The notes beneath the pieces are model-generated. The model was not told the origin of the DNA, made no database searches, and worked only from the letters and a program-made list of their open reading frames with translations. Below, in pieces: positions 1-32,000 of a stretch of DNA of 64,000 nt. The translations under genes and the position numbers were made by a program. The DNA comes from Fistulifera solaris (taxonomy: Eukaryota), in NCBI GenBank assembly GCA_030295235.1, contig AP026135.1:1116001-1180000 (forward strand), given 5' to 3'. The first letter of the stretch is position 1. Each line of letters starts with the position of its first letter.

Positions 1-366
1 GACCGTCTTCGTGACTCCTGTTCTATCGTCACTACGTGTGCAGGCGACGGAGCGTCCGGACTTAGTCTCGGTCGATGATTTGGTCAAAGATTTGGGAAAA
101 CTTTTGATCAGTAACGGAGATCACAAGAAAAGCAAGGACAACAAGAAGAGCAAAGACTCTGATGATGAAAAAGCCTCTCTTTCCAAGGATAAAAGCGGCC
201 ATGTCATTTAATCGAAAACAGCCAGCCCGCATGTCATTCGTTTACTAAATGAAACACCTGAAGCGTTCAACGAAGAACCGGTCGATGTGTCCAGTCAATG
301 ATTGATGACAAGACGTTCAAAGTGACTCGAGTGACACGAAGCTTGCGTCTCAAAGCATGAATCTGA
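1..366 (+). pseudogene. Degraded, inverted duplicate of the uncharacterised gene at 10615-10981 (5' part lies outside the window)
   Basis: Near-identical to the reverse complement of 10615-10981. The intact copy reads GHVTQSK; here it reads GHVI-TAA (stop at 209-211), and a 1-nt deletion follows near 277. Confidence 0.8.
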
Positions 367-1156
367 CAGCTCGCAAAACTAACGGAGAGGCTGCATCTCC
401 AAATACGAGGTTGTTCTCGCAGTGCTGTGTTTCTACATTTAAGATCATGAGTGTTTTTAAATGTGTTAAACTCGATTTCATACTGTTGCGGGTTTGCTGC
501 GATGACTATAGCACCTTTTTCGTGTTCCCGCGTTTCCTTTTTAGAAAATCTTACAAAGCAAGAACTACGAAGCACAGTAAGCCTTGGACGGAACTAGCAA
601 GTTTCACTTTGGCTTTCGACAACAGCAGCAAACTTCATGAAGTTGTACATATGTCGAGGATCCAAACACCTGATGGTGTTCATAGTATTTCTGAGGGGCA
701 TCATCATGACTATATTATCTTTTCCTTAAAATTTTAAAAATCCCCTTAACTTTTTTGGTGTACAGGGGAGGGGTACCGGTATAAGGTCTTGCCTTCGCCA
801 CCAAGCAAGTACCAGTAACTCCCAACTGCAAACTGCATTATTTGAGCATTGAGCATTGAGCGCTGAGCGCTTAGCGCTAGCTAGAAGTCTTTTTGATCGG
901 GGTGAAAAGTGACAAGCCGGAAATCTCTATTATCTGAACTTGATGTTCTCTACTTATTTAAACGAAAATGACCCGAACTCCGAACTACGACCACTCTTCA
1001 CTGTTCCGTCATCGGGGTCGTTCTAGCTCGTAGATCTCGGAGGGCGACGAACGACGTCCGGGATACGGGACAGTAGATTCTGGATGAATCACTGGCGTAG
1101 GGGTTCGGCAACTGTTCGAGATTCTGTACGATAGTATTCTCTACTTCAGGTAAGGA

Positions 1157-1219
1157 CGTTAAAATTCTGCCTCCAGTACAAGATCTACGTAGCCTCCACG
1201 ACGAGGCAGAATTTTAACG
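1157..1219. repeat. Perfect 17-bp inverted repeat with 29-nt loop
   Basis: CGTTAAAATTCTGCCTC (1157-1173) and GAGGCAGAATTTTAACG (1203-1219) are exact reverse complements. Confidence 0.85.
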
Positions 1220-1666
1220 CCGTTTCTTTCCAGAGTCCAGCCAAAGTCGATGCCCATGACATGATATTTGTAATTTGTCTTGGTATCTGAATGAATGAAC
1301 GAATAACACTTGATAACGTAGTATACTTGCAATGGGGAAAGTGGAAACTCAACACTCAACAACGACTCTCAAAGGGCGCGATCGATCGTATTGGTACGAA
1401 TAAACCTGTGAACATTTTAGACAAGAAGACATCAATTGATTCAAGCTTCGAGCTTCGTGTACTTATTAGGACCTTGTGTTCCATACTGTACTGCTGTAGT
1501 GATGAGCTGATGAGTGTTCGCTGTTCGCGATCTCTTCGTCAAGATCGGGATCAAGTAGGGGCAGTTGTATCCTTTGGAAATCAATCATCAAGTGCCCCCT
1601 CCATCGTCACAAATCGCAGTCACTTCCCAACCCGAAAATTAAAGCCTTCCATCAAACGCGCCAACC

Positions 1667-2184
1667 ATGAAGTTCGCTTTTGCACTCGCAGCTACGGTGT
1701 TCACGATCGGCAATGTCAGCGCCCAAACCACTCTTGAAGCTCCCGAAGTTGTGGTTTTTTACCTCAATACGAACGCGGCCTCGGATGCATGTAGCCCAGT
1801 TGAATATACCTATGTCGACAACAAGATCACTCCCGATTTGAACATGGCAATGTTCGACCACAACATTGAGGAAATCCAATGGACCACTTCCGATGGCGCT
1901 CCTAGTCGAAAGTTGCGTGCCGGGGAAGAGCGTGAGTTGAACCCGACGTGCGATTGGTGCCGCCCAATTTATGGCCGAGCCCTGTGCAACGTTCTGTATA
2001 ACTGTGGCTTCCGCCGCCGTCTTCAAGGAGGATCTACTCTCACTGAAGTGCAAAGGCGGAACTTGCAGCCTCTTTGAAAGCGTCTTGCGAGGAAAACTTG
2101 GCGTTCGCCGCCTCGCGCCCGACGATCAGCGCGGCTTGTGCAGCCGGACTCGCCGGAGCGGAGTGCTTCGTGCAGTACGTCTAA
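1667..2184 (+). CDS. Secreted Cys-rich precursor with RxL sites, paralog 1 (1-nt frameshift at ~2052)
   Basis: Signal peptide MKFAFALAATVFTIGNVSA. Collinear with 9884-10399 and 62762-63313. One added A in CAAAG (2051-2055) restores QKAELAASLKASCEENLA...AECFVQYV-TAA (stop 2182-2184), matching the paralog 2 C-terminus. Confidence 0.85.
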
Positions 2185-2364
2185 GGAAGAGAGATAATAT
2201 TGGAACATGCAACGGAACTTTCTCATAGTGCAACTCATAATCAGTTAACAAATCAAAGTATAGAAAACTGTCTCGTGTCATGTTTTTCGAAGTATAATGT
2301 AGGTCTTTGACGAGGGACCGTGTCTCATTCGCTGACGACCATATGTTCCTCTTGCTCTTTCTTT

Positions 2365-4378
2365 TCAATCGGAAGTTCCTAAATGACGTAGTAATAGATC
2401 CACCTGTTGTTGACTTTTCGATACAGAGACTGTCGGAATGATGCGTTGTGGTCTCCAGCATGCAATGCACTCTACCAATTCTGGAAAGCTCGAGTGCTCA
2501 CTGTACGGAACACTATGCACTGTCAGATTAGACCGAGCTGCAGTAGAGATGATTGTACCTTTTGCGAGCGACCACCCCGTTGGACGAAAACCAACTACTT
2601 TGTCGAAAGCCAACTCTTTCTTCCCTATTTTGACCTTGCAATACATATGAAGTTTCTTCATATTCACATGCCCCAATGGGACAACCCAAAGCATAGTTTG
2701 TTCTGGATTGGTTGTGATCCATTTTAAGTCGTCGTCGCCTAGGACAGCTTGCAGAATACGGAAACGCCGCTTGTCGACGTAGACTTTCTTGTTCAGTCGC
2801 TTCGCCACGGATAAGTAAATGCGCTCCTTCCCAATAGTGTACGCACCAAACACTAATAAGAGGCGCATCTTCTCATATTTGTGAACTTCCCTCACCGCAG
2901 TTTCCACTGCAGCCTGTATGGCCTCGGTCTGGGTCGGTAAGACGTACTTGGGATCACAATACGTCGTATCCAAAAAGAGATCGTCAATTTGATACCGTGT
3001 CCCTAAAACTGTCATTTCTTCTCGATGCCAACGAAAATCTCCGACGTGCATAATAATTCGCTTACCGACTTGAAAAGAAGCATGACGGCACCAGGACAAT
3101 GATTGGCATCGTGCAGTGTGACCGACACGGCCTTGTTGTTTGTAGTTACAATCGGAACAGCGACACCGACCGGCAGCGGGTGCAAGTATTGACGATCCAC
3201 TCCCAATTGCTGATTCACAAGGTTGGCGGTTGCTTCCGAGCAATAAATAGTTCCGCAATTCCATTGACGAGAAATGCCTCCGTAATGATCCGAATGAAAG
3301 TGCGTTAAGAAGTAATTGACAGTCAATGATGGAGTTGCGTACTGAAACCCGTCCACCACTAGCAAGTCGTGTGAGAGAGAGAGAGAGAGATGCGAAAGAC
3401 AGTTTTCTTGGACCAATGACACGTACCAAAATCAGTCCCTGGTATCATTTTGTAGAAAGGACATGCGCGACTGGAATATTTGGGCCCGCTCGACCATTGT
3501 CGTTTCTTGGCATTGTTGTTGTTCGTAGTTGTTGTAATCTTAGTTCGTGATTCTTTGCCTTCTTTCGGTTGTTTCGCTTCCTGTGCAACACGACGTGCCC
3601 CATTCATCAACATTAGTAGGGCATTCTGCGGAGCGGATGGTTTCTTTCGTTCGCTAGGCAATATAGTTAGCAAAGTAGTTTGTTGCATTTCTTTGGATGA
3701 TTTTTTCAAATTGTTGTTACACCATGCGGTCTCTTGGATACTCGCCTCTACAATAAATTCTTCATCCGGCTGTTCGATAACATCTTTCGCTTGCACTCCG
3801 TGCTTTTTTGAGCATCGCTTAATGTGATCCATCCGACCTTTCCATCCCGAGTGAATTGTTTCCAACAAATTAGCTCCGCATACAAAGCAGGTAGTAAGCT
3901 GTTCTGATGATTGATGTTTCAGTTCTTTTAGCGGCTCGAGTGAAATTGAAATGTGTAGTCGTTGCTCTTCTTTCGGCTTTGTTGAAGTGGGCTTGGCTGG
4001 ACTGTACGGATTGTGGATAATGCGTTGCTGAGGCTGTTGCTGCGTGGGTCGAATGAGACTTGTCAAGGGTTCATCTTCTTCACCCTCGTCGTCTTCTTCT
4101 GCCTCGTCATCTTCTTCTGCCTCGTCATCATCATCATCACCATCATCCGACGACAATATTTCTACAATTTGTGTACAATGAAAATCGTCTTCTGCTTCGC
4201 TGCTGATTCCGGCATCAAAGTCTTGAATGTCATCTTCGATGGTTGTTTCGATGTGCGGATCGTCATTTTCTTGCTTTTCCTCTGTCGATTGACACTTTGT
4301 GCATGTCAAATCGAGCACAAAGTCCTTGGCAATGAATTTTAGGGCGCAAACACGACAATTACGGACGATTCGTGGCAT
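2365..4378 (-). CDS. SNM1: DNA cross-link repair nuclease of the SNM1A/PSO2 family (UBZ finger + metallo-beta-lactamase + beta-CASP)
   Basis: Motifs THFHSDHYGG, DANHCPGA, HVGDFR, LDTTYC and VPYSEHSS; UBZ-like CFVC...HIKRC. Intron 3359-3426; 1-nt frameshift in a T run at ~3075. Confidence 0.92.
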
Positions 4379-11951: not shown

Positions 11952-13971
11952 CTATTGTTTGATACGTCGAGCGATTGTCTTGTTTTTCACCCTGTCGCTT
12001 TCCAAAATTTCCTCTAGCGTCTGAATAGAAATTGGTTTCGGACGGAAGTCATCCATGCCTGCTTCGAAACCTTGATGACTTGCCTCGGAACTTACATGGG
12101 CCGACATTCCAACAACATACTGTCGAACCGAAGGTCGCTCTTTTGATTCCCACTCGCGATATTGTTTCATGCAATCCAGCCCGTCCATTACAGGCATAAG
12201 GAAATCGCACAGCACAACATCATAAACGCTATCCTTCAGGCATTTAAGACCTTCCAATCCGTCCTTCGCTTCTTTTGTGGCATATCCTAGTGATTTCAGA
12301 GCCCTTATAATCGTCTTTCGCACTACCAAAGAATCTTCAATAACTAAAGCACATCTTTCACTTGCAGGATTGGTTGTGAAACAATCTTTTGGAGGGCCTT
12401 CTGATGGCGCAGGAAATCTCATACATGTTGTACCGTCACTCACGGGGCCAGCCTTACTGTCTTCATTGATGTCTTCATTAGCCACTTGGAACAATGGAAC
12501 AGCCGAGAAAACGAGTACATTGCGCTCTCCGGTTGGTGCGCATCCGTAGTGTCCGCACAGGACGCTCGTCCAGTACACTAACGATTGCAAGCCCAAATGA
12601 TCATTAAATATTTCATCCGCCGAAACATGTACTTCATCGGATAGACGATACTGACATTCAAAAACAAGCTCATCGTGCAGCTTATGAGCAGTATCTTGGG
12701 CGACCCTTTTCAACAAACGAAGTTCGATTGAGTTGCCTGCGGAAGTGTTTAATCCATGATCGATAAGATTAAGAGCGATCTGCAGTAAAGAAATTTCATT
12801 GGAGACAATAGACTCAGGGATGTTCTTGTCGACGGAGAAATCGACGAGAGCTTGGCGATTGAGAAGAGTCGCTATCAGGCTAATTTGGTCTCTCAGTGTG
12901 TATGTCGATGAGACACTCAGACGGCGATGGCGTGGACTATTGCGCAACATGTCGATGGAATGCTCACATAGTTGAGCTACAAGGTCCGAAGTTCGTTTCG
13001 CATTGACAAGGACTCCGTGCTGCTTTGCGTTCAACTGCTCGTGCAATATGTTGTCTTCCGTTAGTAGTGTCAGGGCTAGCTCGAGTGCCCCAAGAGGGGT
13101 GCGTAGTTCGTGAGACGTACTAATAATCAAACTTTCGGGGATCATCGCTCTCTTGGCGTCCCGATAACGAACCATCTCCCGAGTGGCTAGCGCGGCCAAA
13201 TCCAACAAAGTCGCTTCTTCTGAAGCAGAGAGTCCGTGCGGACGGGGCAATGGATCGAAAACACAGAAAGAACCAATCTGCCCGGAACCATTTGAGTATC
13301 AGCGTCCGTTTCGTTAGTCGGTGAGTGCTTGAACATGAAATAATGAAATCTACGGTATCCTTCTGGTCTATGGACACTCACCTGATATCCTTCCGGCGAA
13401 ATCAACGGTGCCCCTGCATAGAAGCGCACCGCACCTGCCTGAACAAATGGATTTTCACAAAATCGAAAATCCTCTGTGGCGTCTTTAATGACGAGACTTC
13501 GAATGTTCTTTTGAGTTGGACCGTATGCGAACACATGGTGATATTTCGCGCATATTCACGCTGATCTGTTCCTTCACACGCAACTACCCACTGCCTCGAA
13601 AAGTCCATCAATGAGACGTTACAATAGGGAACACGCAAGGCGCGTTTCCCCAAACGAGCCAGTCGATCGAATACTTCTTCTCGATCCGCGTCCAACAGAC
13701 AGTACGATTTGAGACACATGAGTCGTTCGAGTTCTTCCTCGACAGTTTGTGCTTCTGTAGTTACCGGATCCGCTTTCGATAGAGCCCATTCGAAGTCTTC
13801 AGGGTCTGTTTGGGGTGTGGCGAAAGAAGGTACATCGTTGGTAACACCACATTGCAAAGCTTCTCGCAGGGCTTCTTCAGTGGGAAAGTCGAGCACCGAG
13901 CGGTACCTTACAACGCTAGCTGAGCTTATGGGTTGATTGAGAAGGTCGGTGGCTGTTTCTACTTCCGTCAT
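11952..13971 (-). CDS. Hybrid sensor histidine kinase: GAF + HisKA + degenerate HATPase + receiver
   Basis: GAF motifs EEVFDRL, CSHTV and DFRFCENPFV...RFYAGAPLISPEGY|IGSFCVFD (intron 13278-13381); H-box SHELRTPL; receiver LVIEDS, CDFLMPVMDG and KP. Frameshift near 13500. Confidence 0.88.
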
Positions 13972-16911: not shown

Positions 16912-18361
16912 CTAATGCTGGTCTTGCTTTGCCAGCCATTCCCTTTCCAACTTTAAAATATGCTTCTTTCGTAACGGTATGTGTATGGAAGTGGTCACTA
17001 ATTTCCCGCCATCCTCTATCCGTTCCGGTAGGTCGCGCATGAACGCCAAGATCTCTTCAAAGGAGAGTTGCAAAAGCCGACTTTGGAATTCTTGTAATAT
17101 TGCCAGCATAACGCGGTAGGTAATTTTCCAGCCTTCTTGCAAGAAGCAATCCCACACCCGCAAGACCAAGTCGAAGCCAAAGGAGCTGGTGTATTGTGTC
17201 AATAACCATTGCGTGGCATACATGGTGACGTGGATGTTTTCCTTGTCAAAGTGCTTTGCCAAGCGCGGCAAAAATTGGTGAACGAGGTGCTCTGCCACAT
17301 ACAAGACTTTGTGCGTTTCTCGCATTCCTTCCCCAAATAGTCCCCTCATATAACACGGTTGATCGGACATAATTGCTGCGACCGAATGATGTTAGAAACA
17401 AGAACACTTGATATGACACTTTAAAGCAAATATGCACCTACCAACTAGCATCCAAAACGCTTCTTCTTCTGTTACAATTGTCAAAAACATGCCCGCAATA
17501 AAATTCATTCCTTGACAGTAACCGACATCCGGATCATGCAAACTATAAGCCTTAAGTACCCTTTTCAACGAAGCTTGCCCTTCTACAATCCCCCGTTCCG
17601 TTTCTTCGTCATTATATCGATCTGGCGAGTCCAAGAGCGATCCTCCAAACGGAGAATTGACCATTTCGGCCTCACTATCGTTCCCATCGTCATAGAACAG
17701 CGAATGCCGGGGAAACGTTCTATGGATGTCCTTTTCGATCGTTTCCTGAACTGTCAGAAAGGCTTTATTGGGACTTTCTTTGCTGTTCACGTAGCTCTCG
17801 TAAAGACCAGGATTTTTTTGTTGCTGTTCTTTTACATGACAAAGCGTCAGCCACACTTTTCCTCTTTGCTCATGTGGAATACCTTTTCGCAGTCGTTTTA
17901 AAACCAATTTCGGCCGTCGTTTCATAACATTTGACCAGGAATTTAACATAATATTCCACTTTGTCGTCCGACGTTGTTCAACTGAAGTAGTTGAAGCGTT
18001 CTTGCCGTTTTGTGTCGTCGCTTTTTTTTTGACTGTCGGTTGTAGGAACAACAACACCGTCCTTGTCCATGTTACTAATAAACCCGTATTGATCTAATTT
18101 CAGCAGCGGCTTGGCTCCTTCCGACTGACTTTTTCGAATAATATCTTCCTCGTCGCTATTCGACATGACGGTCTCTACTCCTCCTCGTTCGGGCATACTG
18201 CTAACGCGACGCAAATCAATTTCCATGCTACTATTCGACGTTACCGTGCTGATCGTCAAATTGTCAATGGCAGGGCTACGGCGCTGCGGGGCCATTTTCG
18301 GCGAAGAAGAAGAAGAAGAAGAAGAAGGAGCCGTATACGTGACAGATGTCGTCGATGTCAT
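16912..18361 (-). CDS. TBC-domain Rab GTPase-activating protein
   Basis: RKGIPHEQRGKVW, IEKDIHRTFP (Arg finger), YCQGMNFIAG (Gln finger) and EEEAFW. Intron 17376-17441; frameshift in the homopolymer at 18022-18030. Confidence 0.92.
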
Positions 18362-19052
18362 ACGAGAGTTTGCTTTGGAATTGTGACAAGAGAAGCGCAA
18401 AACTACCACAAGGAAAGAAAAGAGCGGTACGTTTCTGCAGTGCCGCAACGCCGGTGACTTTAAATAACGTTTGTTAGTCGTTTCCGCGTGTCAAGCCGGT
18501 TTTTCTGGACACTCCAGCCTCTTCTTTCCTCTCTGTTGCAATGTTACGGGACAGAGGAAAGAGAAAGGCTGCTATGAAGTATTATTATGGTCTCCGTCCT
18601 GCTTTTATTGCCGCCGATAGAGAGAGGTGCAGAGTGCGATCGCCTCGTCGTCTCCTGTTTTGAGAGACATCATCCGCTTCCGTTGGCGTTGAAGTTCGGT
18701 TGTGAGGACGTTTTATAAGTAACAGAATCTTTACTGCTGCATTATCGCAACTATCAACGAAAGCGTTTCTACTGGATTCAAATATCCAAAAGAGGTTTAC
18801 ACTACGTTTCATACAAAGTGAGTACCGGTTGCAAATTGCAGCTAAATGCAACAAAAAAAACTGATTTGCTTCGCGAATAAGTTAGCTATGTTTTAATCCG
18901 TATTTTGATCATAACAACAGTAATATAATGCAGGAATAGGACATATTCTTACAGCTATTGATAATTATTCATAATTGAATCTAGGCTTCATCTTCAACAA
19001 TAGTTGTGCCGTAAATCGTTTTATTTCAAGGGGCAATCATGTGGTCCGTCGA

Positions 19053-22000
19053 TCATCGTTGCTGAGATATATTCCTGGCCTCCTGTTCAATTGTCTCCAA
19101 GAAATCGACACAGACCTTGCGAGTATCCTCGTCGCCAGGGTGCATTTCGGTCAAAGCAAGTTGTAGAGAAAGCGATGAAGTATGCAGAAAGCGGAAGGCT
19201 CGATCTCGACCATCTTTGCCTTTGTTTTTGTCGACCGACAGAATCGACATCCACCAGAGACACAGTGCGCGCATAATATGATGATTGACACGAGGGCGAC
19301 CCGCAATCTGTCCTTGTTTCGTTGTATGTAGAGCATGTGCTACGTAGCAAGGCGAACGTGATGGATTCAGGTCCGAGTCAACAGAGTCCAATGCAGCAGG
19401 CGTAACATTTTCTAAGCCGGCCACTATCATTGAAAGAAGTTCAAGAGCTTTGTCTGTCTCTCCTAATTCACGAAGACAACGCACCATTCCAAAAACGGTC
19501 CCTGACACATCTGAGTTCTCTATTCCAGCAACAGCTGAGAAGCCTTCGAACGCTTTCTCAAAATGTGAAAGGGCACAACTCCAATAATACCGGATTGTTT
19601 CCGTGTGTGATTGCTTGGTCGAGCTTGTGGGCAAATGAAGCCAGGTGGCTTGTTCGCAATTTGCAAGTACGGCAAAAGAGTCTCCTAGTACGCGATGGTA
19701 GAACGAACAGATCCAAGGGTCACGAAATCTCTGCAAATCTACGTGTCCTTGCTGAAAGACGATAACGAACTGACGGAGGATCTCAAAGGAGTCCCTACCA
19801 TCGTCCAGATAAAACATAGGAGCATCGCTTGTGGTATCTCGTGATGCATTTCGTAAATACTCCATGTAAGACGCTTCTGTCCCTACCAGCAGCATCGATA
19901 CGCGTTCCGTCGTTTGCGTTAACAGTTGTGCGGCGTGCGAATGATTTCCAGCCCGTCTTGACATTGAAGCGAGATCAAGCATAGCCGTGATGAGAATGGG
20001 GTTCACCTTCGTGTACCTCTCCTCGCACAGAAGGATGAGTGTCGTAAGAACAGAAGCAGCATCGTTCCATCTTCCTTCCTCGGCGTAAGTCAATGCCAGC
20101 AAATTGAGTAAGCCTGGAGCACTTTTACCAAACTTGATTTCGTCGTCGATTTCCTGCTCTTCTAAGCGTACATCCAAACAAACTGACAGGCTTTTGACAA
20201 GGTAGGAGCGCGCCAATCCGAGAAACCCCGCAGGTTCGTCAAAGTTATCACCAAGTTTAAATTTCTCATTCGTCGGAAATAGTCGAACGCAGTATAGAAC
20301 AACTAAGCAAAGACAAAAGGAGCAAGCTGGATCTTCCACTTTCCCAGATGCGCAAGCAAAGGCACACTCCAAAAGCGCCAAGGGAAATTCTTCATCACAA
20401 AGGGTCATCGTATCTTTTCTGAGGATATCCAGCATGTCATCCTTTGACGTATCTGATAGCATTCCACCCAAATCCATGTCCTTCCAACTCATTGTAGCAC
20501 TTCGTGGAGCTTCTGTTCCATCGGCAATAAGTAGTAGATCGGTGCCGATCTTTTCTGTCTCCATGCTCGCAGAAACTTCAGCCTTTAATGCATCCCCTGC
20601 ATCCGGATTTTTCGATACATCGCACGGTGGTGTGATGCCAGTTGCGCACGTAATCAAGGTGCACATGTCGAAAGACGTTAACTTACGGTTTCTAGAACTT
20701 AGGGTCGCATGTAAATTACACAAGTCTTTGTGCAAAGAGGACCCTTGTCACCTAGGACATCATATAGAGCTGAAAGATTGAATTGAATCTCTAACGAAAC
20801 ATAACACACATTTAGTGATGCAACATTGATGTAAAGGAAAAATGAAAGTACACTTACCTGCAATGAAGTCGTCGTTCATTTCAACATTTACCAGTATGTG
20901 GCGATATCCAGTAGGCAAACTTGATCTGACCAAACCCCCGACAGGTGAAGAACCGTAAAACAAATTCTTGATGCGAACGACACGGACCTTTGTTTGATGG
21001 TTTTCATTATTGGAGCTTTGACCACGTGCATCTTCAACTTGGCTTAACCGGGCCAAACCACAAATGAGTGCACCTTCGTTCGGAAAAATTATTCTAGCCC
21101 GCAAAACATCTTTTACTTGCAAGATGTCACCATCGTATTTAAAAGACGCCTTTGATTGAATGGCGTGCGCTGTCTTTACAGCAATGAGGTGACGAATACC
21201 TGAGTCAGCTTTTTCAAAATTCAGTGTTGCATCATCGGTCACTGTTGAGTGACCGCAAATACTTCGGACAATCTCGGTGAATGTGCTTAGTCTTGACGAT
21301 GCTGTAGTAAGCAATGACTGTGTTTCTCTTCCTTTCTCTAGAAAAATCTTTTGTTTCAATAAAGACCGCTCCGGGGTTTGATCCATAGAAAGGAAAGAGC
21401 TTAAGCGCAGTAAATCGTTTACACATGCTGCTGAGTCGGAAGTGCCACCACACTTATGTGAACTAAAGAGCTGTAAATCGTGCAGCTTCGAGTTAACTGT
21501 CATGCAACGGGAGGTGACGACGCTATTGAAATAGCTAGGTTCGTCTAACTTCGAAATCTTGGCGTCTATTGTCGATTTTCGATTCACAAACGATGATCGG
21601 CAAGCCTCACTATGAAGCCACAGAGCTTGGAGTTGCTTCCAATGTAAAGATACTATGTATCTTATGCACCCGTTGCGACAAGCATCTAAGGAAACCAGCT
21701 TTTCGAAAGATGGAATGAGTTCCTCGCGCATTCTCCTGGAGCTCTTCGAAACCGCATTAAGTGTTTGGACCATACGGATATTACTCTTTTCTTCTTCATC
21801 ACCAGAAAACAGTGAATCGTTGCCGAGTTGCAGTTCCTCTTCGTCGTTATCATCCGAAGTCGATAAACAATGTAAAGCACACGGTTTCGATTTTAGTGAC
21901 TGTAAGTTCGAAAGGCTTACCGTCCTGCGCAATTCCGACGTTTGTCTGACGCGATTATTCGTATCCGGAAATCCTTTTTTTCGGCATTCGTCGATAACAG

Positions 22001-25000
22001 AAGAATGCGCTTGCTGCTATAAAAATACGGCGAACTGGGGCAGCTTGAGCTTGTAGAGGTAACCATCGCTCGCTGTACACTAGGAACCAATTCAGATGCT
22101 GATAAGATAGTAACCCTATCACATGTATCAGTCGCGGAGCTAGTTCGTTCGTAAGGAGCAGATGGTGATGTCTTTTTGTCCTCGTTGAACGAAAGATCAA
22201 GAGCGCATGCCCCTGTCCAATCGATATTGTTATGGCGAAGATCTCGCACGAAAGGTTCCGAGTTATCAGCCAAATCTCTGGTTAGAATAAGCTCGGGGTG
22301 ATTCTTAATCAACGTGTAACAAGACGGAACCAGATCCCAATGCGATATCTCTGGATGCACCATAGAACATAATGCTGTTAGGGGAGGGAACTGAGCAACT
22401 TCCATCAGAAGAAAATGTGTCGTCCTCTATGAAGAAAGACGGACTTATGGGAGATCCAGGTGGAGAGATCTCCAAGTTGCCGTACGTATCTCTCTCCATC
22501 CCCGCGAAAACACTGAGATTCGGATCAAACAACGTGTCCGCACTATTTGCCATCACAACGGAATCTACGCCTCTTTGAGCAGGTTTCTGTGACTTAAGCT
22601 TGCTCGAAAGCAAACAAAGGAGTTTGTCTGGGTCTTCATGTAAATCGACCCTGTGATTAGGGAAACAAAGGAGGTCTCGTAATGTGATCTAAATGTTCAA
22701 TCGGGACGGTATGTCTGCCAGTCGAACTAATTGTTTCCAGGATAACATTATGTGAATCTCGATTGGACCCTAGCAAATCATCTCCGTTGATTTCCAAAGA
22801 CTCGCTCGGTGTTATCCTACCGAGGCCTTTTTTTGGTGATCTATGCAACTCGTCCTCACTACGACTGGGTTTTGTGTCGATGATTGATGCAGCTACTGTC
22901 TCTGTTTTGCCACTGTCGTAGATGACGCTAGCAGAGGATGATTCGGCGACATTGATTTCGTTGACAGTCACACAATGCGTATCCATGTCGTCTTCATGGG
23001 CATCAGCAGATTTGTCAATCAGGACCTCGTTTTTATCCAAGCCTTCTGGTATAAAGCGCGAGAACCCGTTCTCTTCATCACAACACCTATTCGCTACCAC
23101 AACCTCGCACGACAATGCTAGCGGTAAGGTGGAGTCTGCTTCCCTTTGTAAATTGTTAATACTTCCCTCTGTGAAGTCTGGTTGTGGCGCATTCGATCCG
23201 TCCTCTCGGTTTCCCTGTTCCGAGTCGCAAGGGGCGCCTCCAACATCAGTATCTAAGTGAACTCCAGAAGTAGAAGTATCTGTATCGAAAAAATCAGACT
23301 CTCTTTCCGCTACGTAGGCGAGCACGTCAACATCTGAGTCTTCGTTACCTCCTCGTGATGTATTTATGCAACAACAAAACGCCTTTGCAATGAAATCAGG
23401 CTCATCGTTCTCTATCTGTGGTACATTTTGTTCGATGTCAAAACTATCCAGTTCCGTGTAGCAAGTTACGGCGTCCACGTTTGAACCCTCTTTGGCAGTT
23501 TGTAATGGTGCTTCACAAACGCCATTCCTTTTCGCTATAAATTTCAACGTTTTGTCCTCGTACTCTATCGGATGTGCACCTTGTCTGTCTTCAAAACTGC
23601 TGGATGCCAACTCTTGCAAGGCGAGACCGATGAGCGAATTCTCGTTTGCTATTCGTAGCTGATCATCACAGTCTTTAGCCGCTCCGGCATCATCGTCATC
23701 AGCAGCAGTAGTAGCATCATCATCATGCGACTTGTTTGCTTGCGACTCGCTTGATCCTTCTTCTCCGTTCCCCCGTGTCGCACTTTGCGCTGCGAGACCG
23801 TTATGCCATTCATTGTTATCAATTCGTAGCTGCTCATCACAATCTTCAGACGCTTCGACAACGTCGTCTAACATTTCGTTCTCCGTGGTTGTTGCATCTA
23901 GTCCATCTCCCAAACCATGCCGTGTCTCATCGCACACTGCGGGGCCGATATCCAGAACTTCGTTTACTAAGGGTAGCTGACTACAACAATCTTTAGCCGC
24001 TTCTACAACGTCGGCGACTGCTTCATGCTTTGACTGCAAATCGTGTGGTCCTTCTTCGCGATTCCTCCACGTTGTGTCTTGCGCGGCTAGACAAATACCA
24101 GATTCATCTCGTTCTATTCGTAGCTGATCATCACATTGTTCAGAAGCTTCAACAACGTCATTGAGCACTTCGTTCGTTGTGGGCGTTGCGTCTAGTCCTG
24201 CTTTTAAACGGGGCCGTGTCTCATCGCATACCTGAACAAAATCCAGAGCTTCTTTCGCTATTTGTAGATTATCATCACAATGCTCAGACACTTCAACATG
24301 CACTTTTTTCACTGATAGCGCGGCGTCTAGTCCTTCGTTAACACCACCCGTTGCCTCATCGCAAGCTGCAAGCGGGTTAAGATTTGGAGATTCCTCCGCT
24401 ATTCGTAGCGGAACAACACAAAGTTCAGACACTTCGACAAAGTCTTCGAGAACTGCGTTCCTTGTTGACGTTGCGTCTAGTCCATCGTCGAAACTACACC
24501 GTGTCTCATCGCTGGCGGAGGCAGTATTGAGCGGTTCTTCCACTATTCCTAACAAATCATCACAATAATCAGACGCTTCAACAGAATTGTCATGCACTTC
24601 GCTCTCTGATTGTTCTGCGTCTAGTCCTTCGTCAACACTACCCTGTGTCCGCTCGCACGCTGCATGGTCAAGATACGAAGCTTCGTGCGCTATTTGTAGC
24701 TGCCCATCACAATGTTCAGACGCCTCGACAATGTTGTCTAACATTTCGTTCTCGATGGGCTTTGCGTCTAGTCCATCGTCAAAGCTACGCCGTGTGGCAT
24801 CGCACTTTGCGTGTCCAGCATTGTTCTCTAATGTTTGTTTGTACAGTCCTTCGCCGCATCTTTCACATGCAGCGTCATACTCTGAGGGGCCAATATCCAG
24901 ATTGTGACCGGTTCGTATTATGTTTTCACAATCGATTGCTGATTGTGCGACTTCTTCGGACAGCTGTTGACGTATCTGCCGTAGATTGTGTCGATCCTTT

Positions 25001-26292
25001 TGGTCCGTCTCCGACAATAACCACCCCGTGTTTTCCGTAAGACAATCGGCATCTCGCCGAGGAGAAATATGGTCACTTTCGTCGCTTTCAGTCATCTCCA
25101 AAGAATCTTTTCGGTTTAGATTGTACCTAGAACCCTCGTCTTTGCAACAGTTGGGTGGATCAACCGATGATTGAGACAAACTATTTGCATCCCATTTCTT
25201 CTCTTCGTCGTATCCAACAGAATGCAAAGCAGAATGAAATAATGGATCTGATTCGCTTGTTCTGTATTTGTAGAACATATCGACATCTCCGTAAGACGGA
25301 TTCTCCTGCACGCTGGTCATACCGTGCAACTGCGAAGCCTTTCCCTCTAAAATTTCAAGTTCATCTACCCCGATCGTTTCCACTTCGTTCTGAATTGCCG
25401 AGCTTGAATTTTCTGAGAGAAGAATTGTCGAACTAGTAGATGACACCGACTTTTCAGCGTCTGAGCAATTCGTGACAGTGCTAGCATTAGTAAGGGCCGT
25501 GCCATCTGCGTGTATTGGGCTAAGCGCTGTTTTCTCTCCATCCAACGCTGTGCCCGTTTCCTTTCCTGTCTCGACCGACTCTTCTTCGATTACATTCCCC
25601 AACTGGGGACCATGGTCAAGTTCGTCTTGAGGAATTATCATTCCAGGTTCTGATGTATCGGGGCTATTCTTTTCATCAATAAGCGTCAATTGCTGAACAA
25701 ACGCAGGAGCGCTCTTAATACAAAGTGCCGCTGGCTCGCTCGCTTCATCAGATACCAAAAGTAAAGACGAGTCAACAATCTGATTTCCATCAGTTTGTAA
25801 TATTGAAGCATTCCTCTCAGCTGTCTCGGACAATTTGTTTGCAAGGTTTATATCCTCTTCGAAGCCTTCGTTCTCGTTCGAGTTCGCAGCGTGGTCGCTA
25901 GCTTCGCCAAGCTTCACCACGGAACCTCCCAACAAGGCCATCAGTTCACCTTCTGCTTCTGCCAGAATGCAATCGAGATCAGAAGCAGTCTCGTTCTCTG
26001 GATTAAAGAAAGGCTCTTGTGTGTTATTGCTTTCTTTTTCTATCGATTCGAACGAACTGGAAAGAGCATGCTGATGATCCCCATTTTGAAGATAATGACG
26101 AAAATCCGTAGAATCTCCTGTTTTAACTTTTTTTACATCTTCTAGCGCGTCATCTGGGAGAGAACGGAAGCTACTTAAACTCACTTCAATTTCATGATCT
26201 CGGCTGCCGGTGGATATCACCTGGCTATATAGATCTCTGTCATCATTTGTCATACTCTGCCGGCAAGAAGGACCGTCGCTTGCTTCCACCAC
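19053..26292 (-). CDS. Very large protein: acidic tandem repeats + RelA/SpoT-synthetase-like nucleotidyltransferase domain + helical/TPR-like C-terminus (probably one gene broken by indels)
   Basis: Five abutting or overlapping minus-strand ORFs with no intergenic gaps. VKT...KASFKYDGDILQVKDVLRARI, PTGYRHILVNV, and EIQ formed across intron 20791-20857. TPR-like LLNLLALTYAEEGRWNDA. Confidence 0.62.
23350..24900 (-). repeat. Degenerate in-frame tandem repeat of ~43 aa (~130 bp) inside the giant ORF
   Basis: Recurring VEASExCDxxLxIAxE...ACDETR...GLDA units, about 10 copies. Boundaries approximate. Confidence 0.8.
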
Positions 26293-27023
26293 GCTTTGAC
26301 TTCACGCACTTCAATCCCTTTTCATCGGACTCAAAGAAGTGGATTCTATTAGTGCTCGTTTTCTCGTCACTGAGGGCGTTCCTTATGGCTTATTGCCACT
26401 CGGCCTCGCAGCTTGAGCGACAGTTGAAAAACCAACACGAAACACGAACGGTAATGCGGCGTGCGGAGTGTTCGTTTTGATGACGCAGTCTACATTTCAA
26501 TCGATACGGAATCTTGGATGTACGATGAAGTGTTCTTGTTAGGGTACTTGTTGCTCTCAGGTGATGTCCGTTGATGGATGAACGGAACGGTCTCCATTCA
26601 CGCGCCGAGAACCGAGACGCACAAAAATCTAGAGAAAGTGGACTGTAAATAATGAGGATAGGGTTTAAAAAAAAGTGCAAACAAGACTCCAATGGGTCTG
26701 TACCGGTACTTGTACGTGGTACCAGGTACGAAAGTAACTCGCTCGAGCCTGAGTCGAAAATAGACTCTAGAGACTAGATAGCAAAAAACTTCGTCGAAAG
26801 GACCGTGAGAATATACGAACTGACATTAAAATACAATTTTAACTTTAGCTGGTCGGAAAACTGAGTTTCGGTTTCCAAGCAAGGGTAAATAATGATGGAC
26901 CGCAGGTTCGCTTCTTTGACGACATCGGTGAAGGGAATAGAAAAGCTTGTTTTCCTGGAGAGCATTATCAGGCGTGATCCATGTCGCTCTGCATTCTTCA
27001 TTTAACTTTGATCTGACAAGCTA

Positions 27024-28317
27024 TCAATGATCCAAGCTAGAATTCGTGGGTGTGACTTTATCTTGAATGGATGGGCGTGGGCAATTGAGATACGTGACCT
27101 GCTTGTTATATTCTTTGGGTGGACCCTCGCAAGAACGACCTAGAGCTGTCTCTACCGACACGGCTATGTCATTCAAATCACCGATTGCCTTTGTCACAGA
27201 AGGCAACACACTTCTATCGCAGTCGTTTAACCATACGCTTTCGTCTACTCTGGCTCGCAAGAAACACATAGTTGGGTGTTCCACAATAGCTTTGTCGTTT
27301 TGTAGTGCCTCTCGAATCGCAGGAAATATGGTTCGATTCAACAGCCTCTCGTCGTGGATTCCGTATCCTTCCTCATTAGTACGTACATGCTCGTCGACGC
27401 GCGAGAACCGCTCTGCCGCCCAAATCTTAACACCCTCATAAGGACCATAAATCATCCGATCATTGACAGGGAATTTTGCAAAGCCTGGTACAACGACCGT
27501 GTCTGAAGTAGCAAACTCCTTCAGCCGCACAGGCGTTAGAAAGAATACGTCTGATCGCAACACGGCTATAGTCTCGTAGCGGATTCCCTCTTTTGAGCAT
27601 GCTCTTCCGCTAAATTCCATACCGACTCAATTGAATGCCACATTTTGATTATATTTGTTGCAGAGTCTTTACCGAACGATTTTTCCTTCCACGGCATGTA
27701 GAGAAGATTACCGTTGTCGTCGGTAGTTGTGCGAATTTTACGCAACATATCGCCCCGTTTCTTTAAAAATTGAGCCTCGGATTCTTCCAGAAAGTGAACC
27801 TTTTCCACATATTGCTTCAGCTGATAAATTTCGTCCGAATGAATGTCACCACCACGCCCTGAACGACCCGCTGCCTCGCGTTCCTTCTGATAGAAATGCA
27901 CGTAAATATGACAGTCTTTGTTATACGGCAATACATTTTTCCGTAGAGAAGGCAGTGTCAGTGACTCGAACGCTCGTGGTAACCCGAAAAGAGCAAGGCA
28001 CAATGTTTCTGCTCATTGTTGGAACTGCTTTCGGTGACGCTTTCGTTCGCTGGTAATGCATCTGCGACGACGCTTTCCTTTATAGGTAAATTGTCAATGA
28101 CGACACTTTCATTCGCAGGCATTAATTCCGTGACATTACTTTCATTCCCATATATTTCATCAGCTACAACATCTGCGGGAAAACTGCTTCCCGTCACCAT
28201 GTCGATAGATATCCAAAGTGAATTGCTTAACACCAATGACGTGACGGCAATAGAAAGGAGGAGAAGAAGCGTCACGGCAAGCCGCCTTCGAGGCTTCAAT
28301 TCCGCATTTGCCATCAT
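27024..28317 (-). CDS. Uncharacterised type II membrane protein, possibly glycosyltransferase-like (two frameshifts)
   Basis: N-terminal basic stretch plus TM helix, NES-repeat stem, then HCALLF/FGLPRAF, IYVHF, IIKMWHSI and LRSDVFF. Three overlapping ORFs join at ~27990 and ~27600. Confidence 0.6.
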
Positions 28318-29123: not shown

Positions 29124-31391
29124 TTAACATTCAGCTGAGCCCTTCTTTGTTTTGCGCATAGCAACAGCTGCACTAATGTCGGCAGCATCTCGTTTGGCGT
29201 CAACGATCCATTCATGATCATCCTTCAGCTCGTTATGGCGATATATTAAAAGTGCTTTGGAGATACAAATATCTGCCAAAGGATATTCTTTTCCCAAAAT
29301 ACTTAGCTTGCCAATTTTATGAAAGAGTCGCGCGACTTGCTGTGCATATCGTCCCTGTAGCGTCAATTGAATTCGTAAAGCTTCTTCGTAGCAGTCCGAT
29401 GCCGTCCTATATTGCTTCATCTGCTCGTACAAATCTCCCATACAGGCACAGGTTACCGCAATAGCAGGATTGTCTTTACCTCCTAATTGTGTTTGCAGGA
29501 CTCTGACTTGCTGATACAGTAGCAAAGCAGGTTCTTGATTGCCCCGTGCTGCTTCAATCGTAGCAATGTTGTGCAGCGTCACGACAACATCCGGATGACT
29601 GAGCCCTAGACGACGGGATTCCATTTTTAGAACTTGTTGGTATGTATTAAAAGCTGCATCAAAGTCTCCCATTTCTTTTTGCAAGTTCCCCCAGTTCCCC
29701 ATAATAGCTGCAACGTTGGGATGAGTTTTTCCCAGACAATATTTCATACCTCGGACCGCAACTCTGTGAGAAAGAAAGTGAGTATCATGCTTTGCATGAC
29801 GAAAAATCGACTGGCGGTTTCTAGACAAAACTTACTCAAAGGCGCTGGCCGCCAAAACGTATTGGTGCTGCATTCGATACCATTGAGCGATCCTATGCAA
29901 GGTCGAAGCCGCTTCGATGTGCGCCGCTTGAATTTCCGACGGCTCTTCGACAAAGAAGGCATCGTACATATTTGTTGCCATTTTCGTGACTTGAGATGAT
30001 TTGTGCGGTTGCTGCTGCTGGGAAGCATCACACGAAACTTCCAAGGCGTGCTCACCATTCACCGTAAGCGCATCGTTCGTTTTTAAACGAGACTGCTGCT
30101 GCTGTTCTTTCCGCAACCGCCATAAATCCTTTGGTGAATTCTGAGACATTTGTTGTTGCGGTACATTTTTCGTTGACTCCTCGGGAAGTGTCCACTGTAT
30201 GTCAAGACAGGTCGCCAAACATTGCAAACTCCCATGATACATATCAAGTGCAGCCTCTTGCTGCTGATATTCGTACACACGCCCCATTTCTCGGTACGTG
30301 ACGGCTCTTGTGACAGCATCGGCCGATTGCTGCAACGCTAATTCCAAAATGGGTAACGCTTCGGCATATTCATGTCTTTGAATTTGGACAGTCCCCAACA
30401 AATTCAACAAGAACGGTAAAGATGGATGCTGTGGCGATAACTGATCATGTCGAATGCGATACGCCACTGTATATAGTTTAAGCGCCTTGATGTACTGTCC
30501 GACATCTTCCGCTTTGATCCCCATCCGAACGATATTCGCACTGTTGGCGTAGGCTGTCGCCATGGCGTGCGCTTGCTCCAATTCTTTCCGAGTAGCTTGC
30601 GTGAGTTCGTCGTGTTTTCTCTGCGCCGCTGTCCCCTGTTTGAGCTGTGCTGCCGTCCCTTCTAGTAAGTTTAGTGCGTTTGTGAGACACTTCAGAGCGT
30701 ATTTGTAGCGATGATGAATTTGAATGGCCCGTGCGGCCTTGTTCCGCAATTTGAGGACTTGTTGAACGACTTCAGTCGGTGACAGTGACAGTGACAATGA
30801 TTCGTCGTTGGGTACGGTACGACAAGAAGGTGTGATAACACGAGAAGGACCACCGGCTTGTGCGAGTGCCTGATCAATTTCATCTTGTACTTTTCGATTG
30901 CTGTTACTGTTGTTGTTGTTGTTCATCGGAAAGAGCGCACCTTGTACAAACTGTTTAAGAGATTTGCGAGCTTCGGCTGGTTCATTGGCTGCGGCAGTCG
31001 GTCGACCTGGTGAAGCAGCTTCTTGCGTCGCAAAGCGCACACGCGTTTGACGGGCTGTAAAATACGATAATACTGGATCTTCTTCCTCATCATCGGCTTC
31101 ATCCGAGCGATTGCTACTTTTCCTCCGATACCGCCGACTCGCAGCACGCGCCGGCGAAGCCACTTCTTCTTCCATTGAAGCTGTGACAGCTTCACCTTCA
31201 TCTCGACTGGATGTTGTCACCTCTTCCGACATGCGCCGTAAGGGCGGGGGAGACGCACTGCGCATCATGGACGTGGATGGTTGTTTCGACCAACAGAGTA
31301 ATGATGATTGATGCTCGTCACTCTTGCTGTCATCATGGTCGATGTAATCGTCATCGATCGATTGAAAGTAGAGCTTATTCATGGGTGGCAT
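29124..31391 (-). CDS. TPR-repeat protein (kinesin-light-chain-like repeats)
   Basis: LGKTHPNVAAIMGNWG, LGLSHPDVVVTLHNIA, YEEALRI. Intron 29764-29835 joins the two ORFs in frame. Confidence 0.88.
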
Positions 31392-32000
31392 ACTTTGTAA
31401 ACTACTGTGCCTTCCTTTGGCTTGTAATAATACTGTAAGAGGTTGATTTAGGAGTTACTAGAGAGGTTGAAGACCTTGAAGAAAAGGCGAGCGATAAAAA
31501 GGAAAAAGTTTCTGAACGTACTGGTAATTCAAACAGCTGGAAGCTGGAACCAAAAAAAGTCCACATGGCGCGCGTTTTTGTAATCTCAACAGACGGAGTC
31601 TCATGGGCGCACTCGTGCCAATGAATACTTCTACAAGAATAATCATCACATAGACAACAGTACCAGGTAGGAGTATGAAGTTGGACGTGCAACGTATTTT
31701 CGGAGTGTCTACGTCCCTACGGATACATAGAAAGCCGAGTATCGTACCGGCATGTCGCTTCACATAAGTACTCGGGAGGCTCTCTGTTTGCGGATTGAGG
31801 ATGAGATGATGAGTGGCTCTCGATTCTCGATCCTTTGCAAATCGTTATTGCTCGACGAATCCTTTTGATTGCTTTTCTTTAAAAATCTTAAATTGCTTTT
31901 GCCTGTTGCAGAAAACAACAATCCATCCTTTCATTGCAACCTCAAACGTATTGTTGTATCTCTGTCATCATCTTCAAGAAGAGAAGAGAAGAAGTGAAAC

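Follow-up and report, generated by a model that had tools for sequence, protein, structure and literature searches.

What does a RelA/SpoT-synthetase-like domain do in a giant protein that shows no sign of being sent to the plastid? The question is raised by a stretch of 64,000 nucleotides from Fistulifera solaris (NCBI GenBank assembly GCA_030295235.1, contig AP026135.1, positions 1,116,001 to 1,180,000 of the forward strand), here called the window. A preliminary description of the window had noted such a domain at 20770..21190 on the basis of the letters and their open reading frames (ORFs). It had proposed a cytosolic or nuclear nucleotide-signal enzyme with altered substrate, or a pseudo-enzyme gated by a helical region. 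For photosynthetic eukaryotes, the sections of PMC6881373 and PMC10107265 drawn on here assign RelA/SpoT homologues (RSHs) and (p)ppGpp to the plastid. Outside plastids, the sections used of PMC3153485 and PMC4986451 give Mesh1-type hydrolases, the heads of fungal NLRs and a few unplaced 'divRel' entries.

According to the structural models, the domain has the fold of the RelA/SpoT synthetases (small alarmone synthetases, SASs), as the preliminary description had supposed. The complete domain of a relative, P0108 (residues 2150–2328), was modelled with AlphaFold2 (AF2) from a 34-sequence alignment, with a pLDDT of 87.8 and a pTM of 0.81. The elements of the model follow each other as H-H-E-H-E-H-E-E-E-H. 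This is the order alpha-alpha-beta1-alpha-beta2-alpha-beta3-beta4-beta5-alpha of solved RSH synthetases. When the model was compared with the PDB using Foldseek, 26 of the 26 matches listed were RSH synthetases (E 9e-6 to 5e-4): RelQ came first (5ded, E 9e-6), followed by RelP, RelA, Rel, Tas1 and CapRel. By protein-language-model features, 11 of the 30 best named clusters for the complete domain belonged to the RelA_SpoT-bearing set (score 0.92). The window's own domain was folded only as far as ...FIA, so that beta5 and the last helix were missing from it. This truncated model had a pLDDT of 77.3, and Foldseek placed RelSeq (1vj7) first with E 0.026; the first 13 rows listed were all RSH and none had E<=0.001.

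With VIA-align, RSH synthetases filled the first 20 rows. They covered residues 1–171 of the 179 of the P0108 model and lay ~4 Z units above the other folds, the next being the RsfS type (9.1–9.0), TdT and pol lambda (7.6) and cGAS (7.4). Moreover, five RSH motifs were found in the expected sequence, each on the secondary-structure element where it belongs. Both results speak against a generic nucleotidyltransferase fold (pol-beta-like or RsfS-like) of some other nucleotidyltransferase family, in which the RSH motifs would have arisen by chance. We regard this explanation as very improbable.

The residues of the putative active site were counted in 149 family sequences (local hmmalign) and compared with FaRel2. 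In the sections of PMC11782079 used here, R64, K66, S70, K74 and R77 of FaRel2 hold the triphosphate and D90 holds Mg2+; G93, R95 and Q147 touch the adenine, E145 makes the site specific for adenosine, and the G-loop contributes Y128, which stacks on the acceptor. The Lys of R-x-K (K48) was present in 142/142 sequences, the helix Lys (K56) in 143/143 and a further Lys (K60) in 139/143. The cradle Ser position was mostly Ala (80) or Ser (49). The position of R77 was Arg in 96/143 (Phe in the window), followed by Lys in 139/143. The Asp at the start of beta2 (D70, equivalent to FaRel2 D90) was found in 143 of 143 sequences.

On beta3, R-x-K-N was almost invariant (R110 143/146, K112 145/146, N113 145/145). 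E. coli RelA has EFDD (EFDDY) at the same place, just upstream of ...NGYQSIH. This EXDD/RXKD position is linked to GDP/GTP preference in the part of PMC2666561 that concerns it, and the basic R-x-K-N of the family would fit a phosphorylated nucleotide as acceptor. In the G-loop, the Tyr (Y132) was present in 145/145 sequences, the Gly in 140/145 and a His (H134) in 144/145. The preliminary description had called the His after Gly-Tyr substituted. This is correct for the canonical position, but an invariant His stands two residues after the Tyr instead of four. The Glu of Glu-x-Gln (E148) was found in 26 of 27 spliced forms, while 35 further rows show a Gly from intron read-through; of the 41 aligned rows at the Gln position, 29 had Gln and the others were read-through. 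The counterpart in E. coli RelA is EIQIRT.

In our judgement, the domain is more likely than not the catalytic part of a strongly diverged, SAS-like enzyme of the RSH synthetase superfamily that would be active as a non-plastid pyrophosphokinase of a purine nucleotide. Because the Asp, the Glu-x-Gln, the Tyr, the lysines and R-x-K-N are kept, ATP-Mg binding and pyrophosphate transfer are probably retained. The domain would bind ATP-Mg and move the beta,gamma-pyrophosphate to the 3'-OH of an acceptor. The acceptor would most likely be a purine nucleotide, giving a product of the (pp)pGpp or (pp)pApp type. The reaction would take place outside the plastid, and the TPR-like domain further along the protein would serve as a regulatory or partner-binding module. 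As the Arg of R-x-K is replaced and D-x-x-R stands in place of D-x-x-G-x-R, the residues suggest a donor site built as in Tas1-type enzymes and not as in RelA/Rel.

The large minus-strand ORFs of the locus are 22657..26301, 22305..22688, 21917..22426, 20760..22016 and 19053..20747. The fourth of them (418 aa) translates as ...IRHLIAVKTAHAIQSKASFKYDGDILQVKDVLRARIIFPNEG...KVRVVRIKNLFYGSSPVGGLVRSSLPTGYRHILVNVEMNDDFIA and holds the motifs that had been quoted in the preliminary description, namely AVKTAHAIQSKASFKYDGDILQVKDVLRARII, VRIKNLF and PTGYRHILVNV, all on the minus strand. Read contigs of four public runs of one study (X1–X4) were aligned with 19000–26400. They cover the intron unspliced and without joints, and thus behave as DNA. 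At four sites, always in a homopolymer, they departed from the window by a single base: 20733 (+A), 21974 (+T), 22381 (-1) and 22660 (-1). Each difference was present in every spanning contig; an X3 contig that ends 2 bases past 20733 shows none there.

With the four edits made and the intron 20791–20857 removed, 26253..19053 (-) becomes a single ORF of 2377 aa with the terminal stop only. Splicing without the edits left 36 stops, and the edits without splicing gave a first stop at aa 1830, within the intron. The product, a nuclear-encoded protein of diatom type, is collinear with two relatives, P0002 (aa 1–1798, 64% identity) and P0003 (aa 653–2376, 66% identity). The breaks between the large ORFs and the frame change after EIQ are single-base homopolymer differences, not introns or separate genes, and the ORFs are pieces of one giant protein, as had been assumed. 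Once the base at 20733 is added, ...GDKGPLCTKT... becomes ...GDKGPLLHKDLCNL..., which shows the family motif LG..G..LH.D. A second intron, running from a donor near 20720 (GTGTAA or GTAATT) to CAG at 20597, had been considered as the cause of the break in frame that follows EIQ. It was rejected because relatives carry ...GP[IL]LHKDL... across this stretch and because the contigs show the extra base at 20733. Since these homopolymer differences, which are probably assembly errors and not real frameshifts of a pseudogene, break genes in the window, its ORF breaks are not to be taken for introns; other ORF breaks in the assembly may be errors of the same kind.

The intron itself splits the codon of the catalytic Glu. 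The exon ends with G20858, the intron runs from GTAAGT to TTAG (20857..20791), and AG ATT CAA TTC follows, so that the predicted spliced product reads FIA/EIQF, as the preliminary description had it. We accept this splice because of the GT..AG ends and the intron-free relatives: 16 intron-free family members have ...A-E-[ILFV]-Q-x-[NQH]-L......LG..GY.LH..I around the splice point. Most genomic ORF calls of the family end a few residues past ...LAGK, which is the read-through of G/GTAAG. Because most calls end in this way, the intron position is shared by most family members.

Coordinates of the features of the giant gene in the window (aa, residues of the 2377-aa model; dot, site given without strand)
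Feature	Position	Strand	Remarks
Whole coding region of the giant gene	19053..26253	-	ATG 26251-26253, stop 19053-19055; intron removed and four read-supported single-base edits made
Exon 1	20858..26253	-	Acidic N-terminal region, W-x-Q-L-x-A-x-W-K-H motif region, most of the RSH-like domain to ...DDFIA + G
Intron, phase-1, 67 nt, GTAAGT...TTAG	20791..20857	-	Splits Glu codon G/AG at the catalytic position
Exon 2	19053..20790	-	EIQ, last domain helix, linker, conserved C-terminal TPR-like domain, stop
Six acidic repeats of ~48 aa (...GLDA...VEASE.CDDQLRI...)	23764..24816	-	Protein-level repeats
RSH/small-alarmone-synthetase-like domain core	20700..21320	-	~aa 1640-1830; AF2, Foldseek, VIA-align; intron inside
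VKTAHAIQSK, putative ATP-triphosphate binders	21150..21176	-	R-x-K Lys 21174-21176, helix Lys 21150-21152; FaRel2 roles from sections of PMC11782079
DVLR, putative Mg2+ ligand	21099..21110	-	Asp 21108-21110, by fold position; Arg at the canonical Gly site; role from sections of PMC11782079
RIKN on beta3	20964..20975	-	In the place of the RXKD/EXDD motif of Rel/RelA; equivalence inferred from position
GYRH, beta3-beta4 G-loop	20898..20909	-	Putative acceptor-stacking Tyr and invariant His; role from sections of PMC11782079
(G)AG ATT CAA = Glu-Ile-Gln on beta5	20783..20790	-	Putative catalytic and adenine-reading pair; role from sections of PMC11782079
Conserved C-terminal helical (TPR-like) domain	19056..20462	-	Pfam TPR_12 at 19905-20111, E 9e-12
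Homopolymer site, contigs with extra A (T on the coding strand)	20733	.	X1, X2; X4 without cover
Homopolymer site (T run), contigs with extra T	21974	.	Joins ORFs 21917..22426 and 20760..22016; X1, X4
Homopolymer site (G run), contigs one base short	22381	.	Joins ORFs 22305..22688 and 21917..22426; X1, X2
Homopolymer site (G run), contigs one base short	22660	.	Joins ORFs 22657..26301 and 22305..22688; all four runs

The N-terminus of the 2377-aa model (MTNDDRD...) has a net charge of -7 in the first 40 aa and lacks a hydrophobic stretch; the maximum hydropathy, taken over 11 residues, was 0.72 in the first 80 aa. By this check of charge and hydropathy, no signal or transit peptide was found in the N-terminus, in line with the claim that a plastid presequence is missing. 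The relative P0002 starts at the same Met. From the missing presequence alone, a cytosolic or nuclear location of the giant protein can be predicted. Asp and Glu make up 21.6% of the N-terminal 1200 aa. The acidic repeats are visible at the protein level only, as Tandem Repeats Finder gave no DNA-level tandem repeat in 22600–26300. With these six repeats on one side and the TPR_12 match on the other, the domain does lie between acidic and helical repeats, as described before. A motif W-[RK]-Q-L-x-A-x-W-K-H-x-E, conserved in many members, is found at about 21640–21670 (-), at aa ~1538 and ~150 residues upstream of the RSH-like core; where models included it, their confidence there was low.

Could the protein be a plastid RSH of the usual kind, with a presequence and an HD domain that escaped notice? 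Diatoms have plastid RSH1, RSH4a and RSH4b in the sections of PMC6881373 that treat them. There, the three RSH genes of Phaeodactylum were found by BLAST with RSH queries (JGI 11099, 7629 and 3397), and plastid signals are predicted for PtRSH1 (bipartite) and possibly for RSH4a. PtRSH1, PtRSH4a and PtRSH4b share the organism group and the catalytic-fold superfamily with the domain of the window. In contrast to it, they have canonical synthetase motifs, and PtRSH1 additionally has a hydrolase, TGS/ACT-type regions and a plastid signal (same sections); none of these was found here. A Pfam scan of the gene's ORFs gave no HD, TGS, ACT or EF-hand domain, and no HD, TGS or ACT domain was found by Pfam in 20 relatives. 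Hence, the missing HD domain was confirmed, and the whole 2377 aa offer neither HD nor TGS nor ACT behind an acidic N-terminus without a hydrophobic stretch. Moreover, the Pfam model PF04607 did not match, yet the same model gave E. coli RelA and SpoT 148 bits as a control. An overlooked plastid RSH is thus hardly credible.

Several points weigh against an active non-plastid RSH synthetase. No sequence-profile method placed the family among the RSHs. The window ORF had no Pfam match at E<=10, and PF04607 was found in 0/20 full-length relatives at E<=0.01. PF04607 was the only Pfam family matched by more than one of 34 members at E<=10 (2/34, best E 0.004), and the match for which a score is shown had 13.3 bits against a gathering cut-off of 27. 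With hhalign, the family alignment reached a probability of 0.3% against E. coli RelA and of 0.2% against a 20-sequence RelA/SpoT profile, which is narrow (gammaproteobacterial RelA fragments and SpoT). The preliminary description had suggested both profile and structure searches for the nucleotidyltransferase fold: the Foldseek part bore out the claim, while the PF04607 and hhalign part did not.

At the active site, the first Arg of R-x-K (position 46, equivalent to R64) was found in 0/142 sequences (G 67, D 35, S 13, N 11); in the window it is Ala, and its replacement had been recognised correctly. The Gly position of D-x-x-G-x-R was Arg in 143/144 sequences, and the final Arg of this motif was kept in 23/145 (Q 84, R 23, S 15; window DVLRAR). 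The FaRel2 equivalences follow from the order of secondary-structure elements and motifs, without residue-level superposition. As to the location, the start codon was taken from the ORF and from P0002. The next minus-strand ORF upstream ends at 27024, ~770 bp from the giant gene, and an extra 5' exon may lie in this interval.

These losses at the canonical donor site (the Arg of R-x-K, the Gly and Arg of D-x-x-G-x-R) would also be expected of a pseudo-enzyme, whose fold no longer catalyses a reaction but still binds nucleotides or alarmones or serves as a scaffold. The same can be said of the profiles, which were all below threshold, and of the embedding of the domain in a very long, largely low-complexity protein. 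However, the Asp, Glu, Gln, Tyr and Lys are near-invariant over ~145 sequences that are otherwise 30–45% identical, which is unusual for a dead enzyme. The conservation argues against the pseudo-enzyme that had been offered as an alternative but is not decisive. In addition, Tas1, an active (p)ppApp synthetase in the sections of PMC11782079 used here, has the same substitutions, although the alignment with it is weak. Altogether, we consider loss of catalysis doubtful.

The family profile was also compared with all PDB sequences. Only 4 rows were obtained and none was significant; the second was Tas1, with E 0.45 over 34 residues. This non-significant alignment spans G-V-K-x3-A-I-x2-K-A-x-R-K-Y-x-G-D-x3-V-K-D-x-L-R-x-x-I.

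In an alignment of 19 members, a conserved C-terminal domain of ~450 aa stood behind every RSH-like domain (consensus ...LVLRCE..LPLYHP..L..MLDLA...GD..AVLANC...ARCLRELG...). At E<=0.001, the Pfam matches of the gene's ORFs were confined to TPR families. TPR families were found near the C-terminus in 16/20 full-length relatives at E<=0.01, and no other domain recurred. Pfam gave no NACHT or NB-ARC domain in the window ORFs or in the 20 relatives, and no Walker A motif (G-x4-G-K-[ST]) was found in the 2377-aa model.

Two further observations concern TPR-coding sequence. In 20091–20174, one X3 contig shows 15 substitutions in 84 bases, while the other three runs agree with the window; this points to variation in the exon of the TPR domain, be it an allele, a strain variant or a paralogue. 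About 3 kb upstream on the same strand, at 29124–31454 (-), there is a second gene rich in TPR_12 (E 2e-23 and 8e-11). It consists of two same-frame ORFs with one stop between them and has no RSH-like domain according to a scan of the window with the family hidden Markov model (HMM).

The family comprises at least 139 clusters at 50% identity. When the 418-aa ORF was compared by phmmer with 1.84 billion cluster representatives, 139 proteins reached E<=1e-3, 130 reached E<=1e-10 and 6 reached E<=1e-30. The motifs quoted in the preliminary description coincide with the invariant columns of this family, which speaks against a chance resemblance. Full-length members are 750–3500 aa long, and the acidic N-terminal regions of the family vary strongly. 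Among ESM Atlas clusters, the nearest carry the label Eukaryota, most commonly Bacillariophyta; the word 'diatom' for the relatives refers to these taxa, while the sources call them 'hypothetical protein'. Database entries are mostly truncated at the conserved intron (...AGK...) and thus lack the catalytic Glu-x-Gln and the C-terminal domain. The family HMM scan found one copy of the RSH-like domain in the window.

Bacterial and archaeal genomes were scanned with the family alignment and its most conserved peptide. The 8 pattern matches fell into 2 loci and yielded no bacterial relative. One locus (L005) was rejected as an ECF sigma factor that contains LPTGYRHVL by chance. The other (L004) was rejected because it is a copy of diatom type that includes the intron; it opens a contig filed as an Acidobacteriota metagenome-assembled genome (MAG). 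Its positions 1–3432 encode a diatom-type member that has the conserved intron as well as an Ala-rich repeat region and the TPR-like domain. By appearance, eukaryotic sequence has been joined to a bacterial MAG or binned with it. In a tblastn search of the complete domain against 50,697 phage records, 3 records were hit (best E 5), none of them meaningful.

How does the family compare with known synthetases? Bacterial RelQ/SAS1 and RelP/SAS2 (PDB 5ded, 5dec, 6fgk, 6ex0, 6ewz) are 14–18% identical to the domain, without a significant profile match. They are free-standing proteins of ~200 aa, whereas the domain here belongs to a eukaryotic protein of 2377 aa and has a TPR-like domain as its partner. 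Compared with them, it has other residues in place of the Arg of R-x-K and the Gly/Arg of D-x-x-G-x-R, and its His lies two positions away. Tas1/Apk1 (PDB 6ox6) shows D-x-x-R and no Arg in R-x-K, as the family does, with the caveat that the alignment behind this comparison is the non-significant one given above. Tas1 is a (p)ppApp synthetase toxin of very high turnover that Pseudomonas aeruginosa secretes by its type VI system and pairs with an immunity protein, a setting that has no parallel here. In the main text of a 2025 survey of Apk1/Tas1 homologues, the word 'eukaryot' is absent (PMC12691689, main text). Unlike CapRel and FaRel2 (PDB 7ztb, 9erv), both toxSAS tRNA pyrophosphokinases, the family lacks a pseudo-Zn-finger antitoxin domain; its C-terminal partner is the helical TPR-like domain of ~450 aa. 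Fungal NLRs with a RelA_SpoT head are likewise non-plastid and eukaryotic and are joined to TPR, ANK or WD repeats in the sections of PMC4986451 that describe them. Their heads match PF04607 and are followed by NACHT or NB-ARC (same sections), whereas here PF04607 stays below threshold and no NTPase domain is present.

These comparisons raise the possibility, by analogy, of an immune or death effector. An active toxSAS-like head (a tRNA 3'-end pyrophosphokinase of the CapRel/FaRel2 kind or an ATP-draining (pp)pApp synthetase of the Tas1/FaRel kind) would be kept off via the TPR-like domain until a trigger such as viral infection; fused CapRel and the fungal NLRs would be the models for this. 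Tas1 being the only sequence-level hint from the PDB fits this explanation. So does the combination of an enzymatic head with superstructure-forming repeats, known from RelA_SpoT-bearing fungal NLRs (PMC4986451, in its sections on these proteins), and so does a large family with very variable acidic N-terminal regions. However, NACHT, NB-ARC and Walker A are missing, and there is a single copy in the window. R-x-K-N and the Arg-His beside the Tyr would also fit a nucleotide with a 5'-phosphate better than a tRNA end. In the sections of PMC11782079 cited above, alarmone synthetases have a larger positive patch at the acceptor site than FaRel2. We therefore hold an effector role to be possible but unlikely.

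Synthetases of this kind may have been listed in diatoms before. Divergent SASs are mentioned for fungi, Dictyostelium and two diatoms in the sections of PMC3153485 used here, and an unplaced synthetase-only 'divRel[S]' is given there for Phaeodactylum tricornutum (JGI Phatr2 49781). This entry is a divergent synthetase-only diatom RSH and is not among 11099, 7629 and 3397. By its description, the only basis of the comparison, it may be an earlier-listed member of the family; if so, one member was on record in 2011, though with no account of its architecture, its motifs or the size of the family. Within the library and the terms that our literature search covered, no account of giant TPR-linked RSH-like diatom proteins was found.

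Two other loci of the window were recorded. A RabGAP-TBC domain at 16912–18093 (-) is split over two adjoining ORFs that share a frame, 16912..17391 (Pfam E 6e-26) and 17392..18093 (6e-28); the single in-frame stop between them is possibly an intron or a base error. An ORF at 11952–13298 (-) has HisKA and response-regulator receiver domains, as in hybrid histidine kinases.

The family differs from the known cases in that at least 139 clusters combine a synthetase fold, intact core catalytic residues and a fixed helical-repeat partner. Standard domain models miss it, and gene callers cut its genes at the intron that runs through the catalytic Glu codon. It may represent a type of enzyme that is new for algae and that pyrophosphorylates nucleotides outside the plastid. 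Should it prove active, its divergent sequences could also seed profiles for such enzymes in other eukaryotes. A more far-reaching and speculative possibility is a diatom family of Pfam-invisible non-plastid pyrophosphokinases. A Tas1/toxSAS-like head would be held by a TPR-like sensor, and a trigger (virus, nutrient collapse) would lead to cytosolic (pp)pApp/(p)ppGpp or to tRNA-end pyrophosphorylation. If this triggered-effector reading were true, the family would be a eukaryotic counterpart of toxSAS/CapRel abortive infection and the first extra-organellar alarmone chemistry in algae. If the enzyme is active, it would in any case offer a way into signalling by alarmones or by RNA-end pyrophosphorylation outside the plastid, or into defence, for one of the main groups of primary producers in the ocean.

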